Source: Candidatus Moraniibacteriota bacterium (lineage in GTDB: Bacteria; Patescibacteriota; Minisyncoccia; Moranbacterales; UBA1568). From it: a stretch of DNA of 64,000 bases. The position numbers and the translations under genes were made by a program. The stretch covers positions 25,061 to 89,060 of the forward strand of contig SSEF01000001.1 of the NCBI GenBank assembly GCA_008012175.1, given 5' to 3'. This document shows, in pieces, positions 5,729 through 63,073 of this stretch. Positions within the stretch are counted from its first letter, which is position 1, and each line of letters begins with the position of its first letter. The notes beneath the pieces are model-generated. The model searched no databases and was not told the DNA's origin. It saw only the letters and a list, made by a program, of their open reading frames with translations.

Positions 5729-6088
5729 TCAGGCGGTTTGCTGAGGCACCTTGTCTTCGGATACGACCGGGCTCTTCATCCTCCTTTCGTGTCTGCTCAG
5801 TAGTAGAGCAAACGGAGTGACAGAAAGGAAGGCTGCATAAATCGCAACCATCACGGGAAGGATGAAGGTGGCGAACTTCGCTGCCACGAGCGGAAGACCG
5901 ATGGCCAATATGGCCAGTGCCGGCCTATTGCCAAGGTCTGGGAAGAATGGGTTCAGGATATGTCCCCATACCCAGTCCATCCCGATGTGGGTCAGTAGGC
6001 CGACGAAGCAGAACGTGCAGCCCATCGTCGTCATCCCGAAGCATGAAAGGAAAACGGCCCACCAGCTATCGGGCTTTCTCTTTTGCAT
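5729..6088 (-). CDS. Small integral membrane protein (hypothetical, 3-4 predicted TM helices)
   Basis: Start chosen at MQKRKPDSWWAVFL (ATG at 6088) because GGAGG sits 7 nt upstream; the longer ORF to 6268 has no RBS. Hydrophobic throughout. Confidence 0.5.
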   Translation of the reverse strand: MQKRKPDSWWAVFLSCFGMTTMGCTFCFVGLLTHIGMDWVWGHILNPFFPDLGNRPALAILAIGLPLVAAKFATFILPVMVAIYAAFLSVTPFALLLSRHERRMKSPVVSEDKVPQQTA

Positions 6089-56941: not shown

Positions 56942-57313
56942 ATGGATAAAAACTTCCAAGAAATTTTGAAAGAGAAGGGGGACGCGTATGCATCTGGTGT
57001 CTATCGATTGAGCCGGTCGTTTCCTAAAGACGAGCTGTATGGACTTACTTCACAGCTTCGAAGGTCGGCATTGTCAGTTGTGCTTAATTGCATCGAGGGG
57101 TATGCTCGGGCGAGTGACGGGCAATACAGGAATTTTCTTCATATCGCGTATGGTTCCTTGAAGGAATCGGAGTACTTGCTCGGTTTTGCCAAAAGGGAGA
57201 ATTATGTTGATAATGAGGCAGTTTACGAAGAATTGCTCGGTCTGGCTGATGAAATAGGAGCGATACTTTGGAAGACTATCGATGGTCTGAAAGACAGGCA
57301 GGGGCAGTCCTGA
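56942..57313 (+). CDS. Four-helix-bundle protein (TIGR02436 family)
   Basis: Typical SLS..R.A.SV..N..EG motif (LRRSALSVVLNCIEGYAR). Lower GC (about 46 percent) than its neighbours. Confidence 0.8.
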   Translation: MDKNFQEILKEKGDAYASGVYRLSRSFPKDELYGLTSQLRRSALSVVLNCIEGYARASDGQYRNFLHIAYGSLKESEYLLGFAKRENYVDNEAVYEELLGLADEIGAILWKTIDGLKDRQGQS

Positions 57314-57337: not shown

Positions 57338-58309
57338 ATGAAAAAGAAAGGCATGAAAGTCCTCATTACCGGCGGGGCAGGATTCATCGGGAGCGCGACG
57401 GCGCGGGCCCTCATGGACCGCGGGGACACACCGATCCTCATCGACAATTTCAACGATTACTATGACCCGCGGATCAAAGAGGACCGCATCAAGAAGTTTC
57501 TCAAAGACTACAAGGGTCAGTTCAAGCTCTATCGCGGCGATATCCGCGACCGCGCCTTCCTCGAAAAAGTCTACAAGAAAGAACGGCCCGAGAAAGTCGT
57601 CCATCTCGCTGCCATGGCGGGCGTGCGGAACAGTCTGAAGGATCCGGCGCTCTATGCTGATGTGAACGTGATGGGGACGACGTACCTCCTCGACCTCGCG
57701 GTGAAGTACGGCGTGAAGAATTTCCTCTACGCCTCATCGTCATCGGTCTACGGCAACAATACCAAGCTGCCGTTCGCTGAGACCGATCCAGTCGATACGC
57801 CGATCTCGCCCTATGCCGCGACCAAGAAGGCGACCGAGCTCCTTGCCCATGTCTACAGCCATATCCATGCGCTCCCCACGACGGGACTCCGCTTCTTCAC
57901 CGTCTACGGCCCGTGGGGCCGGCCGGACATGGCGCTCTTCACGTTCACCCAGGACATCATCGCGGGAAATACGATCAAGGTGTACAACTACGGCGATATG
58001 ACGCGGAACTTCACCTATATCGACGACATCGTGTCGGGGATATTGACCTGCCTCGATGCCGACCTCGCCTGCGCGGTCATGAATATCGGCGGTGACAAGG
58101 AGGAGCGCCTCACCCGCTTCATCGAAGTCATCGAGGAAAATGTGGGAAAGAAGGCCAAGAAGAAAATGATGCCCATCCAGCCCGGCGATGTGAAGAGTAC
58201 CGTCGCGGATATCCGTCGCTTGCGCAAACTCGGCTGGAAGCCGACCACCCGCATCGAAGTCGGCATCAAGAACTTTGTGGAGTGGTATAAGGGGTATTTT
58301 AAGGCTTAA
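57338..58309 (+). CDS. NAD-dependent nucleotide-sugar epimerase/dehydratase (extended SDR)
   Basis: VLITGGAGFIGS Rossmann motif and catalytic YAATK. Confidence 0.85.
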   Translation: MKKKGMKVLITGGAGFIGSATARALMDRGDTPILIDNFNDYYDPRIKEDRIKKFLKDYKGQFKLYRGDIRDRAFLEKVYKKERPEKVVHLAAMAGVRNSLKDPALYADVNVMGTTYLLDLAVKYGVKNFLYASSSSVYGNNTKLPFAETDPVDTPISPYAATKKATELLAHVYSHIHALPTTGLRFFTVYGPWGRPDMALFTFTQDIIAGNTIKVYNYGDMTRNFTYIDDIVSGILTCLDADLACAVMNIGGDKEERLTRFIEVIEENVGKKAKKKMMPIQPGDVKSTVADIRRLRKLGWKPTTRIEVGIKNFVEWYKGYFKA

Positions 58310-58418
58310 CTTCGAGGAAGGGACTATGTCGTCGATGGAAAGATTGCCGAACTTGTCTTTTGTTGGAGATGTTTCCGATAAGGCGCGAAAAGAAAAACGA
58401 AAAGAGTAAGAGCGCTTT

Positions 58419-59336
58419 ATGATCGAGGATCATCGGCTTAGGATTTCTCAAGAAGAAAAAGATAAACTTGCTCGTCATGAAGTAGCGAAGACCCCAGAGG
58501 AAATTCGCCTGTTTGAATTTGCCGACTCTTGGGGACAGAAACGTCAGGAAATCTGTGGTGCTACCCCCTATCAATTTCCGGTAAGGAACATTTTTCTCTT
58601 GAAACCGGATGGCTATAACGAAATGGTTGGTGGAAGCGGCGCGACTGGGTATGTCGATTCTCAGCGAATTGCGATGGTTATCCAGGACAACAAGTATAAT
58701 CTCACATCAAAAGTATTCCATGAGATGACACATTGTCGGGGTAAAATCGTTGTTGAAATTGCTGAGCGCGATCAACGGGTACTTGGGAATACGCTGCGGA
58801 CGGGGCTCACCGTTCATTCAACGAGTACTCAGAATCGAAGAGGGGAAAGTCATAAACATCTACATGGCTTAGAGGAAGCAGTGGTGTCTCAGGAGGAAGT
58901 TTATTTCAGTTTTGCTTTACTGGATCGTCCAGAGTTCAAAGAGCTAAAAAGAATGATGCTATCTGAATCAGGTAGGGCGGAAAGAGAGCGTATTTGCGAC
59001 GCTAAAAAACTTGATAATGATGACCTACTCTGCTTTGATCCAGAGAAAAAAGAATATGAAATCGTAGGTTACTCGAAGCAGAGAAAAGTACTACGCTACG
59101 TCTGCCAAGAGATTGCTGAGGCAGTGAATAGCACTGAGAATGAAGTCTATTTCTTGTTTTTAAAAGCCCATTTTTCTGGTCATCTCCTTGAAATTGCTCG
59201 GTTGTTTGAGAAAACATTTGGTTCGGGGGCTTTTCGAAGACTTGGGGATATGGGCACAGACTCTGTCTCTGCTGTTCAGACACTTGAGGCTTTGAAAAGA
59301 ATGAGAGCCGGCATGATAGGAACTCGAGATAAGTAA
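58419..59336 (+). CDS. Hypothetical protein with HExxH (HEMTH) zincin-like motif; low-GC gene
   Basis: SKVFHEMTHCRG. GC about 43 percent, well below the flanks. No further family assignment possible by eye. Confidence 0.45.
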   Translation: MIEDHRLRISQEEKDKLARHEVAKTPEEIRLFEFADSWGQKRQEICGATPYQFPVRNIFLLKPDGYNEMVGGSGATGYVDSQRIAMVIQDNKYNLTSKVFHEMTHCRGKIVVEIAERDQRVLGNTLRTGLTVHSTSTQNRRGESHKHLHGLEEAVVSQEEVYFSFALLDRPEFKELKRMMLSESGRAERERICDAKKLDNDDLLCFDPEKKEYEIVGYSKQRKVLRYVCQEIAEAVNSTENEVYFLFLKAHFSGHLLEIARLFEKTFGSGAFRRLGDMGTDSVSAVQTLEALKRMRAGMIGTRDK

Positions 59337-59375
59337 AAAAAACGAGACGGCCCGGAGGTCGTCTCTTGTTTTGTG
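59337..59375. terminator. Bidirectional intrinsic terminator between convergent genes
   Basis: A8 run, GAGACGGCC-CGGA-GGTCGTCTC hairpin, then TTGTTTTG; reads as a terminator on both strands. Confidence 0.6.
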
Positions 59376-59407
59376 CGCGCGTTGGCGCGGGATGGTATCG
59401 TCGGAGC

Positions 59408-59950
59408 CTAGCCCTGAACGGGGTAGAACATCCGGCGCTTTGCTCGGGCTCGATCAAGGAAGCCTGGATCTTGGCTCGCCTGGACCTGTTCCGCCAGTCG
59501 GCGATAGACAGCGGCCGTTTCATCGTCCCAGCCAACAGGGAGACAGATGATGTTGAGATGGTCGACCGTCACAGGCGGATGGCCTTCGCCAGTAGCGGAG
59601 AGCTCTCCGAGTTTGACTGCCTGCAAGCTGATCCCGGCGAATTCCAGCGCCGTATTGGTCCGCTGCGGTATCAACGAAGCGTGGCGTCCGAGCGAGGTGC
59701 AGGACGGTTGACTGCGGATCGACAGTTTGCTCCACGGATTGAGTCCGTCGAGGTCAAATCGGCAATGCTGTTCATATAGCTCGAACACGCTTCTCTGTAT
59801 TTCCAGGATGATCAGAACTTGATCCGCCTCTCCGGTGGTGACGATGTCATCGTAGAGATATATACGGTGAAGCAATCCTGGTTTCCGGCTTTTCCGGGCG
59901 ACATCGGCCAAGGCCAAAGCAATGGCGGCTGCTTGTCTGAGTGTCGGCAT
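59408..59950 (-). CDS. Phosphoribosyltransferase-like protein (PRPP-binding motif near the N-terminus)
   Basis: LHRIYLYDDIVTTGEA matches the PRT-family PRPP-binding signature (four hydrophobics, D-D, two hydrophobics, T-T-G). The motif sits at residues 28-43 of 180, an atypical position. AGGAGG RBS 7 nt upstream. Confidence 0.5.
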   Translation of the reverse strand: MPTLRQAAAIALALADVARKSRKPGLLHRIYLYDDIVTTGEADQVLIILEIQRSVFELYEQHCRFDLDGLNPWSKLSIRSQPSCTSLGRHASLIPQRTNTALEFAGISLQAVKLGELSATGEGHPPVTVDHLNIICLPVGWDDETAAVYRRLAEQVQASQDPGFLDRARAKRRMFYPVQG

Positions 59951-60003
59951 ATACTACCTCCTATCTGATTTTAAGGTCCAAAAAACGTCCATTGGGACAT
60001 CCT

Positions 60004-60032
60004 ATTCTACTAGTTTCTCTTGTCGGCGTCAA
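60004..60032 (-). promoter_or_regulatory. Sigma70-type promoter for the PRTase-like gene (minus strand: TTGACG, 17-nt spacer, TAGAAT)
   Basis: rc of 60027-60032 gives TTGACG; rc of 60004-60009 gives TAGAAT. Spacer contains ACTAGTTTCT, the same 10-mer as repeat block B. Confidence 0.5.
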
Positions 60033-60072
60033 GGAGAAATGAAAACGGACGACCAATTTTTTTGGTCGTCCG
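60033..60072 (-). terminator. Intrinsic terminator after small-protein gene B (minus strand)
   Basis: Minus strand: CGGACGACCAA-AAAAA-TTGGTCGTCCG (perfect 11-bp stem) followed by TTTTCATTT. Confidence 0.7.
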
Positions 60073-60100
60073 GAATGCTGGCAAGGCAGCGCGAACAGTG

Positions 60101-60427
60101 TTACTCACTGAGAGGCTCGCAATAATCCCGTTTGTAGCGGATCACTGCTCCTGGCATCTGGCTCCAATAGCGAGCAGCCTCGTATTTTCCTTGGGCGGTG
60201 AGAGCGGCTACGACGTCGCTTTTCATGACATAGTAGCCACTCGGTTCGTCCAGAAAGCACTGTCCGTCACGGGTCTCAGACAGCGCGGCAGCGACTTTGT
60301 ATCCGTCGATCCGTATTGTGCAGCCGACAAGCGCCTGATAGTGGGTCAGGAGCGCATCGGATGGGGCGGTCGGTCGGCGGATGATGCGGATCCGTTGGAT
60401 CTCGGTATCAGCGGTCAGTTCAGACAT
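60101..60427 (-). CDS. Small hypothetical protein B (108 aa), paralogue of the upstream gene
   Basis: AGGAGG RBS 7 nt upstream. N-terminal TADTEIQRIRIIRRPTAP aligns with PADTEPGIPRLVQIIRRPPDI of protein A. Also AALSETRDGQC versus AELSETMGIC. Confidence 0.55.
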   Translation of the reverse strand: MSELTADTEIQRIRIIRRPTAPSDALLTHYQALVGCTIRIDGYKVAAALSETRDGQCFLDEPSGYYVMKSDVVAALTAQGKYEAARYWSQMPGAVIRYKRDYCEPLSE

Positions 60428-60428
60428 C

Positions 60429-60797
60429 TCATTCCTCCTTCGGAGTGTTCATTGGCGGGTGGGGAGTCGCAAATCCCGGATCATCCGGAATGACAGCTGT
60501 GTATATGTAGCAGTCAAACGGAATTCTTGTCGCGCGACCAAGCGGAAGACAAATGCCCATCGTCTCGGACAATTCTGCTCCGAATTTTGTATCGAGGGCG
60601 GTGCGTATCGCCCGATTGTCGAGGAAGAGGGCGTACGCATCACGCCCGAACGCGGGGTCATCAGTCAGAGAACGGAGTGCCGGATCGACTTCTACACAGA
60701 GGTCGATGAGTACGGCCCCGAGCGCCGGATTGATGTCCGGTGGGCGGCGGATGATCTGGACGAGGCGCGGTATTCCTGGTTCGGTATCTGCAGGCAT
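60429..60797 (-). CDS. Small hypothetical protein A (122 aa), paralogue of the downstream gene
   Basis: AAGGAGG RBS 5 nt upstream of ATG 60797; 1-nt gap to gene B. Confidence 0.55.
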   Translation of the reverse strand: MPADTEPGIPRLVQIIRRPPDINPALGAVLIDLCVEVDPALRSLTDDPAFGRDAYALFLDNRAIRTALDTKFGAELSETMGICLPLGRATRIPFDCYIYTAVIPDDPGFATPHPPMNTPKEE

Positions 60798-60842
60798 TTT
60801 TCGCCTCCTTGCTATGTTGTCAAAGAATTTTTCGTCCCCGAA

Positions 60843-60872
60843 ATAATAGCAATGATAATCCGATTTTGTCAA
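60843..60872 (-). promoter_or_regulatory. Sigma70-type promoter for the A-B small-protein operon (minus strand: TTGACA, 18-nt spacer, TATTAT)
   Basis: rc of 60867-60872 gives TTGACA; rc of 60843-60848 gives TATTAT. Confidence 0.5.
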
Positions 60873-60911
60873 TAGGAGCGTAAGTGGATGTTATGATGGA
60901 TAAACTACTAT

Positions 60912-61856
60912 ATGCATCGGATTGTTGTTTGGATATTGATATGTATTGTCAGTATCGGGGCGCTGTATGCGTTTGAGTCGGCGCGCGTCCCGTGCCGTTC
61001 GCCGCTCGGGTACGGGATCGGGCAATTCGACGGCCGCTTCGACATCACGCCGGATGAATTCCGCATGGCTCTGGCCGAAGCCGAAGAGCCATGGGAGCGG
61101 GCGCTTGGACGCGAGCTTTTCCAATATCGGGATAAAGCACTTTTCCCAGTGAATCTCATCTTCGACGAGCGGCAGCAGCGCACCATCGATGGGAAGAATC
61201 TGGAAGACGAACTGGCTGATGTCACAGCGATGCAGACTAGCATCCGTGAGAAATACGCAGCTGCGGCCGATACGCTCTCAGCCCGGCGGAAGGAATATGA
61301 TGCCATGCTCGCTCGTTTTGAGCAGGACCTTGAGCGTTACAATCGGCGAGTGGCTGATTGGAATGGGAGCGACCGCACCGATGAGGACGAGCTCGAATGG
61401 CTCCGAAAGGAAGAGCGCCGTCTCGATCGGACCAGCGCCGAACTCGAGACGCTTCGCGGGAAAGTAAATGCGCTCGTCGCAATCGTTAACCGCTATGCCA
61501 AAGAAGAGGAGAAAGTCGTCGATCGATACAATGCGGAGGTTGAGACATTCGCGGAGACGTACGGGACCGGTGAAGCGTTCGATCAGGGCGTGTATGACGG
61601 TCAGGGGATCGACATCTACCAGTTTGATGATCGGGAGCATCTCGTGATGGTGCTCACCCACGAGCTCGGGCATGCGCTCGGTCTCGAGCATGTCGCCAAC
61701 CCAAAGTCCATCATGTACCCCGTTCTCGGTGAGCAGGATCTCGGCGAACTCGCGCTTTCGGCAGAAGACCGCGCGGCGCTCGAAGCGGTCTGCTCGGTCA
61801 CAGTGATCGATCTTCTCGTCCGTGACGCGCGTCAGGCATGGCTGGGCCTTTTTTGA
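60912..61856 (+). CDS. Membrane-anchored metzincin (matrixin/M10-like zinc metalloprotease) with a coiled-coil region
   Basis: HELGHALGLEHVANPKSIMYP corresponds to HExxHxxGxxH plus a Met-turn. N-terminal TM helix. Confidence 0.75.
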   Translation: MHRIVVWILICIVSIGALYAFESARVPCRSPLGYGIGQFDGRFDITPDEFRMALAEAEEPWERALGRELFQYRDKALFPVNLIFDERQQRTIDGKNLEDELADVTAMQTSIREKYAAAADTLSARRKEYDAMLARFEQDLERYNRRVADWNGSDRTDEDELEWLRKEERRLDRTSAELETLRGKVNALVAIVNRYAKEEEKVVDRYNAEVETFAETYGTGEAFDQGVYDGQGIDIYQFDDREHLVMVLTHELGHALGLEHVANPKSIMYPVLGEQDLGELALSAEDRAALEAVCSVTVIDLLVRDARQAWLGLF

Positions 61857-61933
61857 GTCGACGATAGAGGAAGCATTTTCTAGCGGGAAGTCAATGCTCG
61901 AAACCGCAGCCGAAGTAAGGTAGAATAGGGAAC

Positions 61934-63073
61934 ATGAAAATCGCTCTCGTCCATGACTATCTGGTGCAGTACGGCGGCGCCGAGCGCGTGCTCGAAGCGT
62001 TCACTGAGATCTGGCCGTATGCGCCGATCTACACGCTCCTCCACGATCCCGAGGCGATGCACGGGAAATTCGAGGGAAAACGCATCTATACCTCGTTCCT
62101 CCAGAGGTCCCGCTTCGCCCGGAAGCATCACCGGCTCTTCCCGCCGCTCATGCCGGTCGCGATCGAGAGCTTCGACTTCTCGAAGTACGATGTCGTCCTG
62201 TCGGACTCGTCGAGCTATGCGAAGGGCATCATCACTGGTCCAGAGACGCTTCATATCTCGTATGTCCATACGCCGATGCGCTACGCCTGGGACGACTGCC
62301 AGAAATATACCGAGGACTTCGGCTGGCCGCGCTTCATCAAGAAGCTCGTGCCGTTCTTCATGAACCCGATCCGGCTCTGGGACAAGGCTTCGGCCGACCG
62401 GGTCGACCACTTTATCGCCAATTCCGAATTCGTCCGGGCGCGCATCGCGAAATACTATCGCAAGGAGTCCGATGTGATCCATCCGCCGGTCGAGGTGGCG
62501 CGTTTCCGGGTGGCGTCCGCGAGCGGGGTGAAAGGCTACTACCTCATGGTCGGCCGGCTCATCGCCTACAAGCGGCACGATATCGCGATCGAGGCGTTCA
62601 ATCGGATGAAGCTACCGCTCAAGATCATCGGCCGCGGTCCCGAACTCGAACGACTGAAGAAGCTGGCCGGACCGACGATCGAATTCCTCGGACGCGTCCC
62701 GGACGAGGAGCTGCCGAAATACTATGCCGAATGCCAGGCCTTCATCTTTCCGCAGGAGGAGGACTTCGGCATCGTCGCTGAGGAAGCCTTCGCTTCGGGT
62801 CGGCCGGTGATCGCGTATCGTGGCGGCGATATCGTCGAGCATCTCGAAGAGGGGAAGATGGGCGAATTCTTCGACGAGCAGACGGCTGATGCGCTCGTTC
62901 ACGCGATGGAGCGTTTTCGCGGCCGGTCCTACGACAGCGCCTTGATCCGCTCGAAGGCTGAGCGTTTTGACAAGGAGCGCTTTAAGGCTAGAATAAGTGA
63001 CCTGGTCGAGCACCTGGTTCGCGAACATCTCGCGGGCAGGTCTAAGCAGGTATCGGGAAAGGTTAATCCCTAA
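61934..63073 (+). CDS. Glycosyltransferase family 4 (GT-B)
   Basis: MKIALVHDYLVQYGGAERV N-terminus and FIFPQEEDFGIVAEEAFASGRPVIA (E-x7-E motif). Confidence 0.85.
   Translation: MKIALVHDYLVQYGGAERVLEAFTEIWPYAPIYTLLHDPEAMHGKFEGKRIYTSFLQRSRFARKHHRLFPPLMPVAIESFDFSKYDVVLSDSSSYAKGIITGPETLHISYVHTPMRYAWDDCQKYTEDFGWPRFIKKLVPFFMNPIRLWDKASADRVDHFIANSEFVRARIAKYYRKESDVIHPPVEVARFRVASASGVKGYYLMVGRLIAYKRHDIAIEAFNRMKLPLKIIGRGPELERLKKLAGPTIEFLGRVPDEELPKYYAECQAFIFPQEEDFGIVAEEAFASGRPVIAYRGGDIVEHLEEGKMGEFFDEQTADALVHAMERFRGRSYDSALIRSKAERFDKERFKARISDLVEHLVREHLAGRSKQVSGKVNP

Follow-up and report, generated by a model that had tools for sequence, protein, structure and literature searches.

The stretch examined here, a 64-kb window of a 93.6-kb metagenome-assembled genome contig, comes from Candidatus Moraniibacteriota, a member of the Candidate Phyla Radiation (CPR). 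Its minus strand carries three small genes, here called A, B and C, whose products were identified by exact look-up as NCBI hypothetical proteins. Their sole close matches, in assemblies from Logan, ENA and JGI, were strain variants with identities of 94% or higher, and a search of JGI metagenomes with gene A recovered nothing beyond A itself. The genes and the elements that accompany them are as follows.

60843-60872, minus strand: promoter of the A-B operon, TTGACA-18-TATTAT, with TG before the -10 element; 11 of 12 positions in the consensus scan.
60429-60797, minus strand: gene A, 122 amino acids (aa), NCBI E6Q06_00485; its Pro-rich C-terminal tail overlaps the ribosome site of B.
60101-60427, minus strand: gene B, 108 aa, NCBI E6Q06_00480; member of a small alpha/beta family, tandemly amplified in related genomes.
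60046-60072, minus strand: terminator after B, a perfect 11-bp stem with a 5-nt loop and a T-run; found at the same position in L014 and L016.
60004-60032, minus strand: promoter of gene C, TTGACG-17-TAGAAT; 10 of 12 positions in the consensus scan.
59985-60000, minus strand: leader hairpin of C, AUGUCC-CAAU-GGACGU, a conserved feature of the alignment that is predicted in the window as well as in L014 and L016.
59408-59950, minus strand: gene C, 180 aa, NCBI E6Q06_00475; probable minimal Pol-beta-type nucleotidyltransferase fold with its catalytic residues lost.
59825-59863, minus strand: codons of residues 30-42 of C, IYLYDDIVTTGEA; relic of a nucleotidyltransferase strand-GS-helix motif, mistaken for a phosphoribosyl pyrophosphate (PRPP) loop.
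59344-59365, both strands: terminator hairpin common to the convergent genes for C (minus) and an HExxH protein (plus); one A.C mismatch on C's strand.

Open reading frame (ORF) calling bore out the preliminary description of three minus-strand genes with a 1-nt gap between A and B, and the consensus scan recovered the promoters and the perfect terminator that it had named. Six promoter-like sites were observed, against 2.1 ± 1.3 in shuffled sequence. Every gene had been credited with a textbook terminator; indeed, C also has one, the hairpin at 59344-59365 shared with the convergent gene. Each ATG is preceded 6 nt upstream by AAGGAGG or AGGAGG, again as described. These ribosome sites had been called stronger than the window norm, and they are: when the whole window was scanned for AGGAGG followed 4-10 nt on by a start codon opening an ORF of at least 60 aa, three of the five matches were A, B and C, and the other two (36812, plus strand; 6834, minus strand) were judged unlikely to be gene starts. 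By a second measure, B and C were the only ones among 65 non-overlapping window ORFs of at least 100 aa with a Shine-Dalgarno match of at least 6 bases, A having been left out of that set because it was displaced by its own antisense ORF. Of what was confirmed for A, B and C, nothing stands out more than these unusually strong ribosome sites. Over the window as a whole, canonical Shine-Dalgarno sites are nearly missing, with A, B and C as exceptions: in 47 of the 65 long ORFs, the 17 nt before the first possible start contain no Shine-Dalgarno match of at least 4 bases, a count that start-codon mis-assignment could inflate.

In related genomes, the genes occupy a slot bordered by a matrixin or glycosyltransferase gene on one side and a sugar epimerase gene on the other. 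At locus L014 (complete genome CP064975.1), the order runs from glycosyltransferases and the matrixin through an A orthologue and two B-like genes (98 and 96 aa) to a terminator and promoter, a C orthologue (P0024), a 337-aa HExxH protein and the epimerase. L015 has one B-like gene 15 nt 5' of a canonical C relative, a gap so short that the two are therefore taken to be co-transcribed, and L016 has a B-like gene followed by a C-like gene. Two further loci contain B-like genes and no C-family gene: L021, with two B-like genes, and L019 (3819-5297), with five B domains in four tandem ORFs of 92, 191 (a fused double), 97 and 98 aa, the largest B expansion seen in the slot. A search of the GTDB genomes with P0028 recovered two loci. 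B and C are thus adjacent in four lineages (the window, L014, L015 and L016), and the complete A-B-C order is also present in L014. All three are genuine genes, maintained across genera together with their expression signals. The A orthologue in CP064975.1 is preceded by a matching TTGACA-18-TAGTAT layout; C forms its own transcription unit in the window, L014 and L016; and the -35 element of its promoter, TTGACG, is invariant in these three. From these comparisons, A, B and C probably constitute a lineage-specific accessory cassette of Candidatus Moraniibacteriota, occupying a constant position within a gene cluster for cell-envelope glycans.

The leader hairpin (GUCC-loop-GGAC) lies directly 3' of the C promoter and recurs, altered by G-U and A-U changes, at L014 ~5930-5945 and L016 ~341-356; in each of the three lineages another weak stem extends to the C ribosome site. 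Folding energies of the C leader did not differ significantly from those of shuffled sequences, and an Rfam scan of 58000-62000 gave no match.

A, B and C evolve much faster than the genes that flank them, with window-to-L014 identities of 35-43% for the three and 51-91% for the flanking genes. Distinct strain variants, given as synonymous/non-synonymous, numbered 0/2 in A, 1/7 in B and 5/11 in C, against 31/17 in the HExxH neighbour. Although the numbers are small, this spectrum points to relaxed or diversifying selection.

The preliminary description had singled out IYLYDDIVTTGEA in C, placed at residues 31-43, as an unmistakable PRPP-binding signature. The stretch is in fact residues 30-42. 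Set against the 13-position PRPP-loop pattern (PROSITE PS00103), it agrees at 11 positions, and in the structural model of C it sits at a strand-to-helix junction. These two features would suit a permuted or truncated type-I phosphoribosyltransferase (PRTase) that binds PRPP via this stretch and has two small partner proteins. However, IYLYDDIVTTGEA is conserved in none of the 17 relatives of C; in the alignment the nearest of them, P0024, has a 3-residue deletion within it, and in homologues the same columns hold a GS...DxD motif. One strain variant of C itself carries T39A. The Pribosyltran domain (PF00156) gave no match to C at E ≤ 1, no PRTase appeared among the 50 Foldseek PDB matches listed for the C model, and PADLOC returned no retron or defence PRTase match. 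Truncation of a PRTase by a mis-called start is excluded, since the ORF opens at the first possible start after a stop and is not extendable upstream. The likeness of C to type I PRTases, ComFC and retron PRTase effectors is therefore confined to a 13-residue look-alike at a strand-helix junction: we found no similarity in sequence, profile or fold, and the motif is not in C homologues. We conclude that the PRTase reading is almost certainly wrong. This removes a false lead, there being no new PRPP or PRTase system at this locus, and it serves as an example of a PRPP-loop mimic produced by a degenerate GS motif of a nucleotidyltransferase.

The judgement that ComF and retron-effector architectures do not fit here held, with no resemblance found in Pfam or PADLOC. 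That none of the three proteins belongs to a nameable family stood as far as Pfam, NCBIfam, PADLOC and PHROGs are concerned; it did not stand in the wider sense, as B and C have distant relatives. For C, searches of these four collections and of PDB sequences returned nothing significant (a single Pfam match, E = 0.17), and a word-indexed search recovered only C itself. PDB sequence searches with profiles of A, B and C yielded noise only.

An exhaustive HMMER search with C, in contrast to these, identified 17 credible relatives of 27-44% identity, mostly full-length, in proteins of 155-182 aa; a 4551-aa repeat protein in the same search was taken as spurious. In the alignment, the columns of IYLYDDIVTTGEADQVLIILEI read (W/Y)LYGS-x8-D-x-D-hhhEV in the relatives, and those of IYLYDDIVTTGEA read (L/W)YLYGS-x8-DxD, running on to ...LEVD; this pattern is the hallmark of minimal nucleotidyltransferases of the Pol-beta superfamily. 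A further Asp is conserved within LD-h-h-CLPxGWD. Pfam searches of the 18 aligned family members matched NTP_transf_2 in 7 (best E = 6.5e-5) and Polbeta in 6, C itself matching neither. The AlphaFold2 (AF2) model of C, built with the family alignment as input, had a mean predicted local distance difference test score (pLDDT) of 89.7 and a predicted template modeling score (pTM) of 0.87. It comprises a helix, strand, helix, strand and helix, a helical insertion of ~65 residues, the CLP strand, and two helices plus a strand. Foldseek matches in the PDB were weak, the best being the minimal nucleotidyltransferase (MNT) antitoxin 7ae2_B (probability 0.94, E = 0.01), and the top matches comprised MNT antitoxins, AadA/AAD(9), Tam41 and HI0073. 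These data point to C as a diverged, single-domain protein with a nucleotidyltransferase fold of Pol-beta type (MNT-like).

The C family resembles MNT proteins (NTP_transf_2, PF01909, or Polbeta, PF18765; for example, HI0073 and MntA of the HepT/MntA type VII system) in several respects: its layout of an N-terminal helix, strand-GS-helix and strand-DxD, the weak Pfam matches of its members, the best structural matches to the C model, the small size of C and the small partner gene that often lies beside it. It also departs from them. C itself lacks the GS, the DxD and the third Asp; its relatives are spaced GS-x8-DxD rather than x10; and the family has the ~65-residue insertion and invariant CLPxGWD and DPxFL motifs of its own. 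Moreover, the neighbour of C is no HEPN protein and lies upstream, in the window behind a terminator and promoter, and three C relatives carry a histidine-phosphatase (RHG) fusion. What emerges is a defined, previously unannotated nucleotidyltransferase-fold family marked by the CLPxGWD motif and by histidine-phosphatase fusions. In the fusions (P0029, P0040 and P0041), the His_Phos_1 domain is N-terminal in two and C-terminal in one, which hints that active C-family members may work together with a phosphatase. The window contains no second C-family copy and no SixA-like or histidine-phosphatase domain.

Most relatives keep the catalytic GS-x(8-13)-DxD and third carboxylate, and C does not. 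At the catalytic columns, C has D34 and D35 where GS would stand, Q44 and L46 at the two Asp positions of DxD, and N133 at that of the third Asp; its nearest relative, P0024, has lost GS through a deletion and reads RVE where DID would be expected. MntA becomes inactive when GS is mutated to AT or DxD to ExE, and its third Asp, D71, binds the second Mg2+ (PMC7641770). Because C has lost GS, DxD and the third Asp and the corresponding MntA mutants are inactive, C should be catalytically dead, and it is very probably a pseudoenzyme.

In a rival account, the three genes are unlinked, fast-evolving or decaying occupants of a permissive slot, C being a degenerating copy of a housekeeping CPR nucleotidyltransferase and A and B envelope- or glycan-related. 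Such an account would explain the near-neutral polymorphism spectrum and slot content that differs in each lineage. It would also accommodate B arrays without C, the separate transcription unit of C in the window, L014 and L016, and the isolation of C relatives elsewhere, which stand alone beside DnaB/RecR, or between aminoacyl-tRNA synthetase and RseP-type protease genes. Outside the lineage of the window, C relatives also occur as phosphatase fusions. However, four separate lineages have B as the gene immediately 5' of C, the gap being only 15 nt in one, and C remains full length at 43% identity, with promoter, leader hairpin and ribosome site kept after catalytic loss. The maintenance of the C promoter, terminator, leader hairpin and ribosome site in three lineages argues against simple decay, and the conservation of both C and its control elements after loss of catalysis argues for retained function. 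We regard unlinked neighbours in a variable slot as the less likely explanation.

A profile search with B-like proteins gathered a family of only 16 proteins, none with a Pfam domain; Pfam searches of all members gave only one stray match, at E = 0.11. B matched the family profile with E = 5.3e-34 and the extended hidden Markov model (HMM) with E = 1.1e-28, values that are partly circular as B is in both profiles. Independently of the profile, B is 31-42% identical to the two L014 copies, P0042 and P0043. A distant relative, P0056, is doubtful, and its genomic context is uninformative. The AF2 model of B (pLDDT 85.7) shows a small alpha/beta fold, for which searches of PDB and BFVD structures found no significant match. 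Tyr65 and Leu76 are invariant across the family. These data establish B as a member of a tiny uncharacterised alpha/beta family of ~97 residues that is tandemly duplicated, with one to five domains per genome, and that was found only in CPR bacteria. In their variable copy number, tandem duplication, fused doubles, rapid divergence and size of ~100 aa, the B arrays are like the immunity-type protein arrays generally known from polymorphic-toxin loci. Unlike those, no toxin gene was identified beside the B copies, B matches no known immunity family, and its setting is a glycan biosynthesis cluster. A small, rapidly duplicating family with no significant match among solved structures is a finding of modest value.

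The preliminary description also held A and B to be diverged duplicates, citing two shared patterns. The patterns as worded failed: A alone matches 'ADTE..I.R(L/I).(Q/R)IIRRP', and B alone matches 'A(E/A)LSET..G(I/Q)C', indels being needed to reconcile them. The ADTE...IIRRP similarity of the two proteins is specific to the window species, since the L014 orthologues lack the ADTE extension. In pairwise comparisons, BLASTP of A against B produced no alignment, and Smith-Waterman scores against shuffles favoured a relationship at p ~0.01-0.02. Neither the B-family HMM nor the HMMs of its N- and C-terminal halves singled out A (E = 21) or the A orthologue in a set of 1251 ORFs, and a first hhalign comparison of A with the B family was not significant (P = 0.088). 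The paralogy itself found support from hhalign with profiles on both sides. The profile of A and its orthologue, an unannotated 116-aa ORF at L014 4882-5232 that is ~36-37% identical and the sole distant A relative found, matched the extended B alignment with scores of 28-30.7 (P = 5.5e-5 to 1.3e-4) over 84-85 collinear columns spanning both proteins. In controls, 100 column permutations had a mean score of 10.6 (standard deviation 2.0, maximum 20.5) and the reversed profile scored 10.1. When the window's own B was omitted, the score was 24.2 (P = 7.5e-4; permutation maximum 14.9), and the match was weak with single A and B sequences. Taken together, the profile comparison makes A a probable, though far diverged, paralogue within the B family.

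By analogy with two-gene MNT/partner modules, a C-family protein would bind its B-family partner. In lineages with an intact active site, the C-family nucleotidyltransferase may nucleotidylylate that partner, with the family-invariant Tyr65 of B as candidate acceptor. In the window organism, C would act solely by binding; limited in this way, it would make the module an abundant non-catalytic protein complex. Our best guess is that A, B and C form a highly expressed non-enzymatic binding module.

Several points weigh against this interpretation. The physical link between B and C is drawn from the analogy just given. C lies behind a terminator with its own promoter, and C-family genes stand alone in housekeeping contexts of other CPR lineages as B arrays do without C, so that B-C adjacency may reflect only a shared variable slot. 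HMM searches leave A unconnected to B, and the first hhalign comparison was non-significant; C itself has no significant Pfam match; and the polymorphism counts are small. Finally, a novel mode of metal binding by the acid-rich loop of C, DDIVTTGEAD, is conceivable in principle.

The resemblance to MNT antitoxins also brings in a conflict system, in which the nucleotidyltransferase-fold protein would neutralise a small toxin in the manner of type VII systems, or the tandem B copies would be a diversifying immunity array under an arms race. The closest solved structures to C, among the Foldseek matches listed, are MNT antitoxins, and PADLOC PDC-S09 candidate models weakly match the N-terminal motif region of canonical C relatives. 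Conflict would also fit the arrays of tandem paralogues, the fused double domain, the rapid divergence and the surplus of non-synonymous variants among strains, as well as the invariant Tyr of B, the HepT residue AMPylated by MntA likewise being a Tyr (PMC7641770). The features expected of a toxin partner are nevertheless missing: A and B have no HEPN or DUF86 match and no Rx4-6H motif, B is alpha/beta rather than a helical bundle, and the B family has no conserved Arg/His pair. In addition, the antitoxin-like partner is catalytically dead in the window; the gene order and separate promoter are atypical for a toxin-antitoxin pair; A, B and C themselves have no PADLOC match; tblastn searches of phages with the three found no relatives; and no mobile-element genes lie nearby. 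We therefore consider a conflict system of this kind improbable. A broader proposal, in which C-family nucleotidyltransferases and B-family proteins are an undescribed CPR enzyme/target pair, forming a type VII-like conflict or regulatory module, is a long shot. Here the invariant Tyr of B would be nucleotidylylated, the B arrays would record an arms race, and the window enzyme would be dead and reduced to a pure binder. If true, this pair would represent a new partner class for MNT-type systems in CPR bacteria.

Upstream of the cassette, the preliminary description had placed a metzincin protease at 60912-61856, and a matrixin-type enzyme is indeed encoded there on the plus strand (Pfam Peptidase_M10, E = 7.9e-12). 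An N-terminal segment of the protein is hydrophobic, and its long central region shows weak matches to models of coiled-coil type (SMC, OmpH). The gene adjoins the slot in L014 and L019 as it does in the window, but not in L015 or L021. Between the glycosyltransferase and the matrixin, where the window has only 77 bp, L014 (3324-3746, plus strand) and L019 (2318-2686, plus strand) carry an additional unannotated gene of 122-140 aa.

The convergent neighbour of C (58275-59336, plus strand) encodes an HExxH protein (HEMTH ... GLEEA) with no Pfam match, 333-338 aa long in other strains. In the window its reading frame is interrupted at 58407-58409, where TAA stands in place of a Tyr codon, and a restart at the ATG at 58419 would give 305 aa; the stop could be a nonsense polymorphism, a pseudogene mutation or an assembly error. 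Farther along, a gene for a 123-aa four-helix bundle lies between methyltransferase and epimerase genes (window 56942-57313, plus strand; L010 9502-9873), and the L010 copy matches Pfam 23S_rRNA_IVP and, weakly, bAvd. The gene is absent from L001, L002 and L009, so it represents a strain-level insertion or deletion.

Gene callers have been misled by long ORFs on the strand opposite A, B and C (window 59366-59779, 60020-60493 and 60381-60875, all plus strand). In the annotation of CP064975.1, a 72-aa antisense ORF (L014 4975-5193, minus strand) was called and the A orthologue was missed. An apparent replacement of C in strain L001 was rejected on the same grounds: the C ORF is intact there, and the caller had picked a 204-aa antisense ORF (L001 10830-11444, minus strand).

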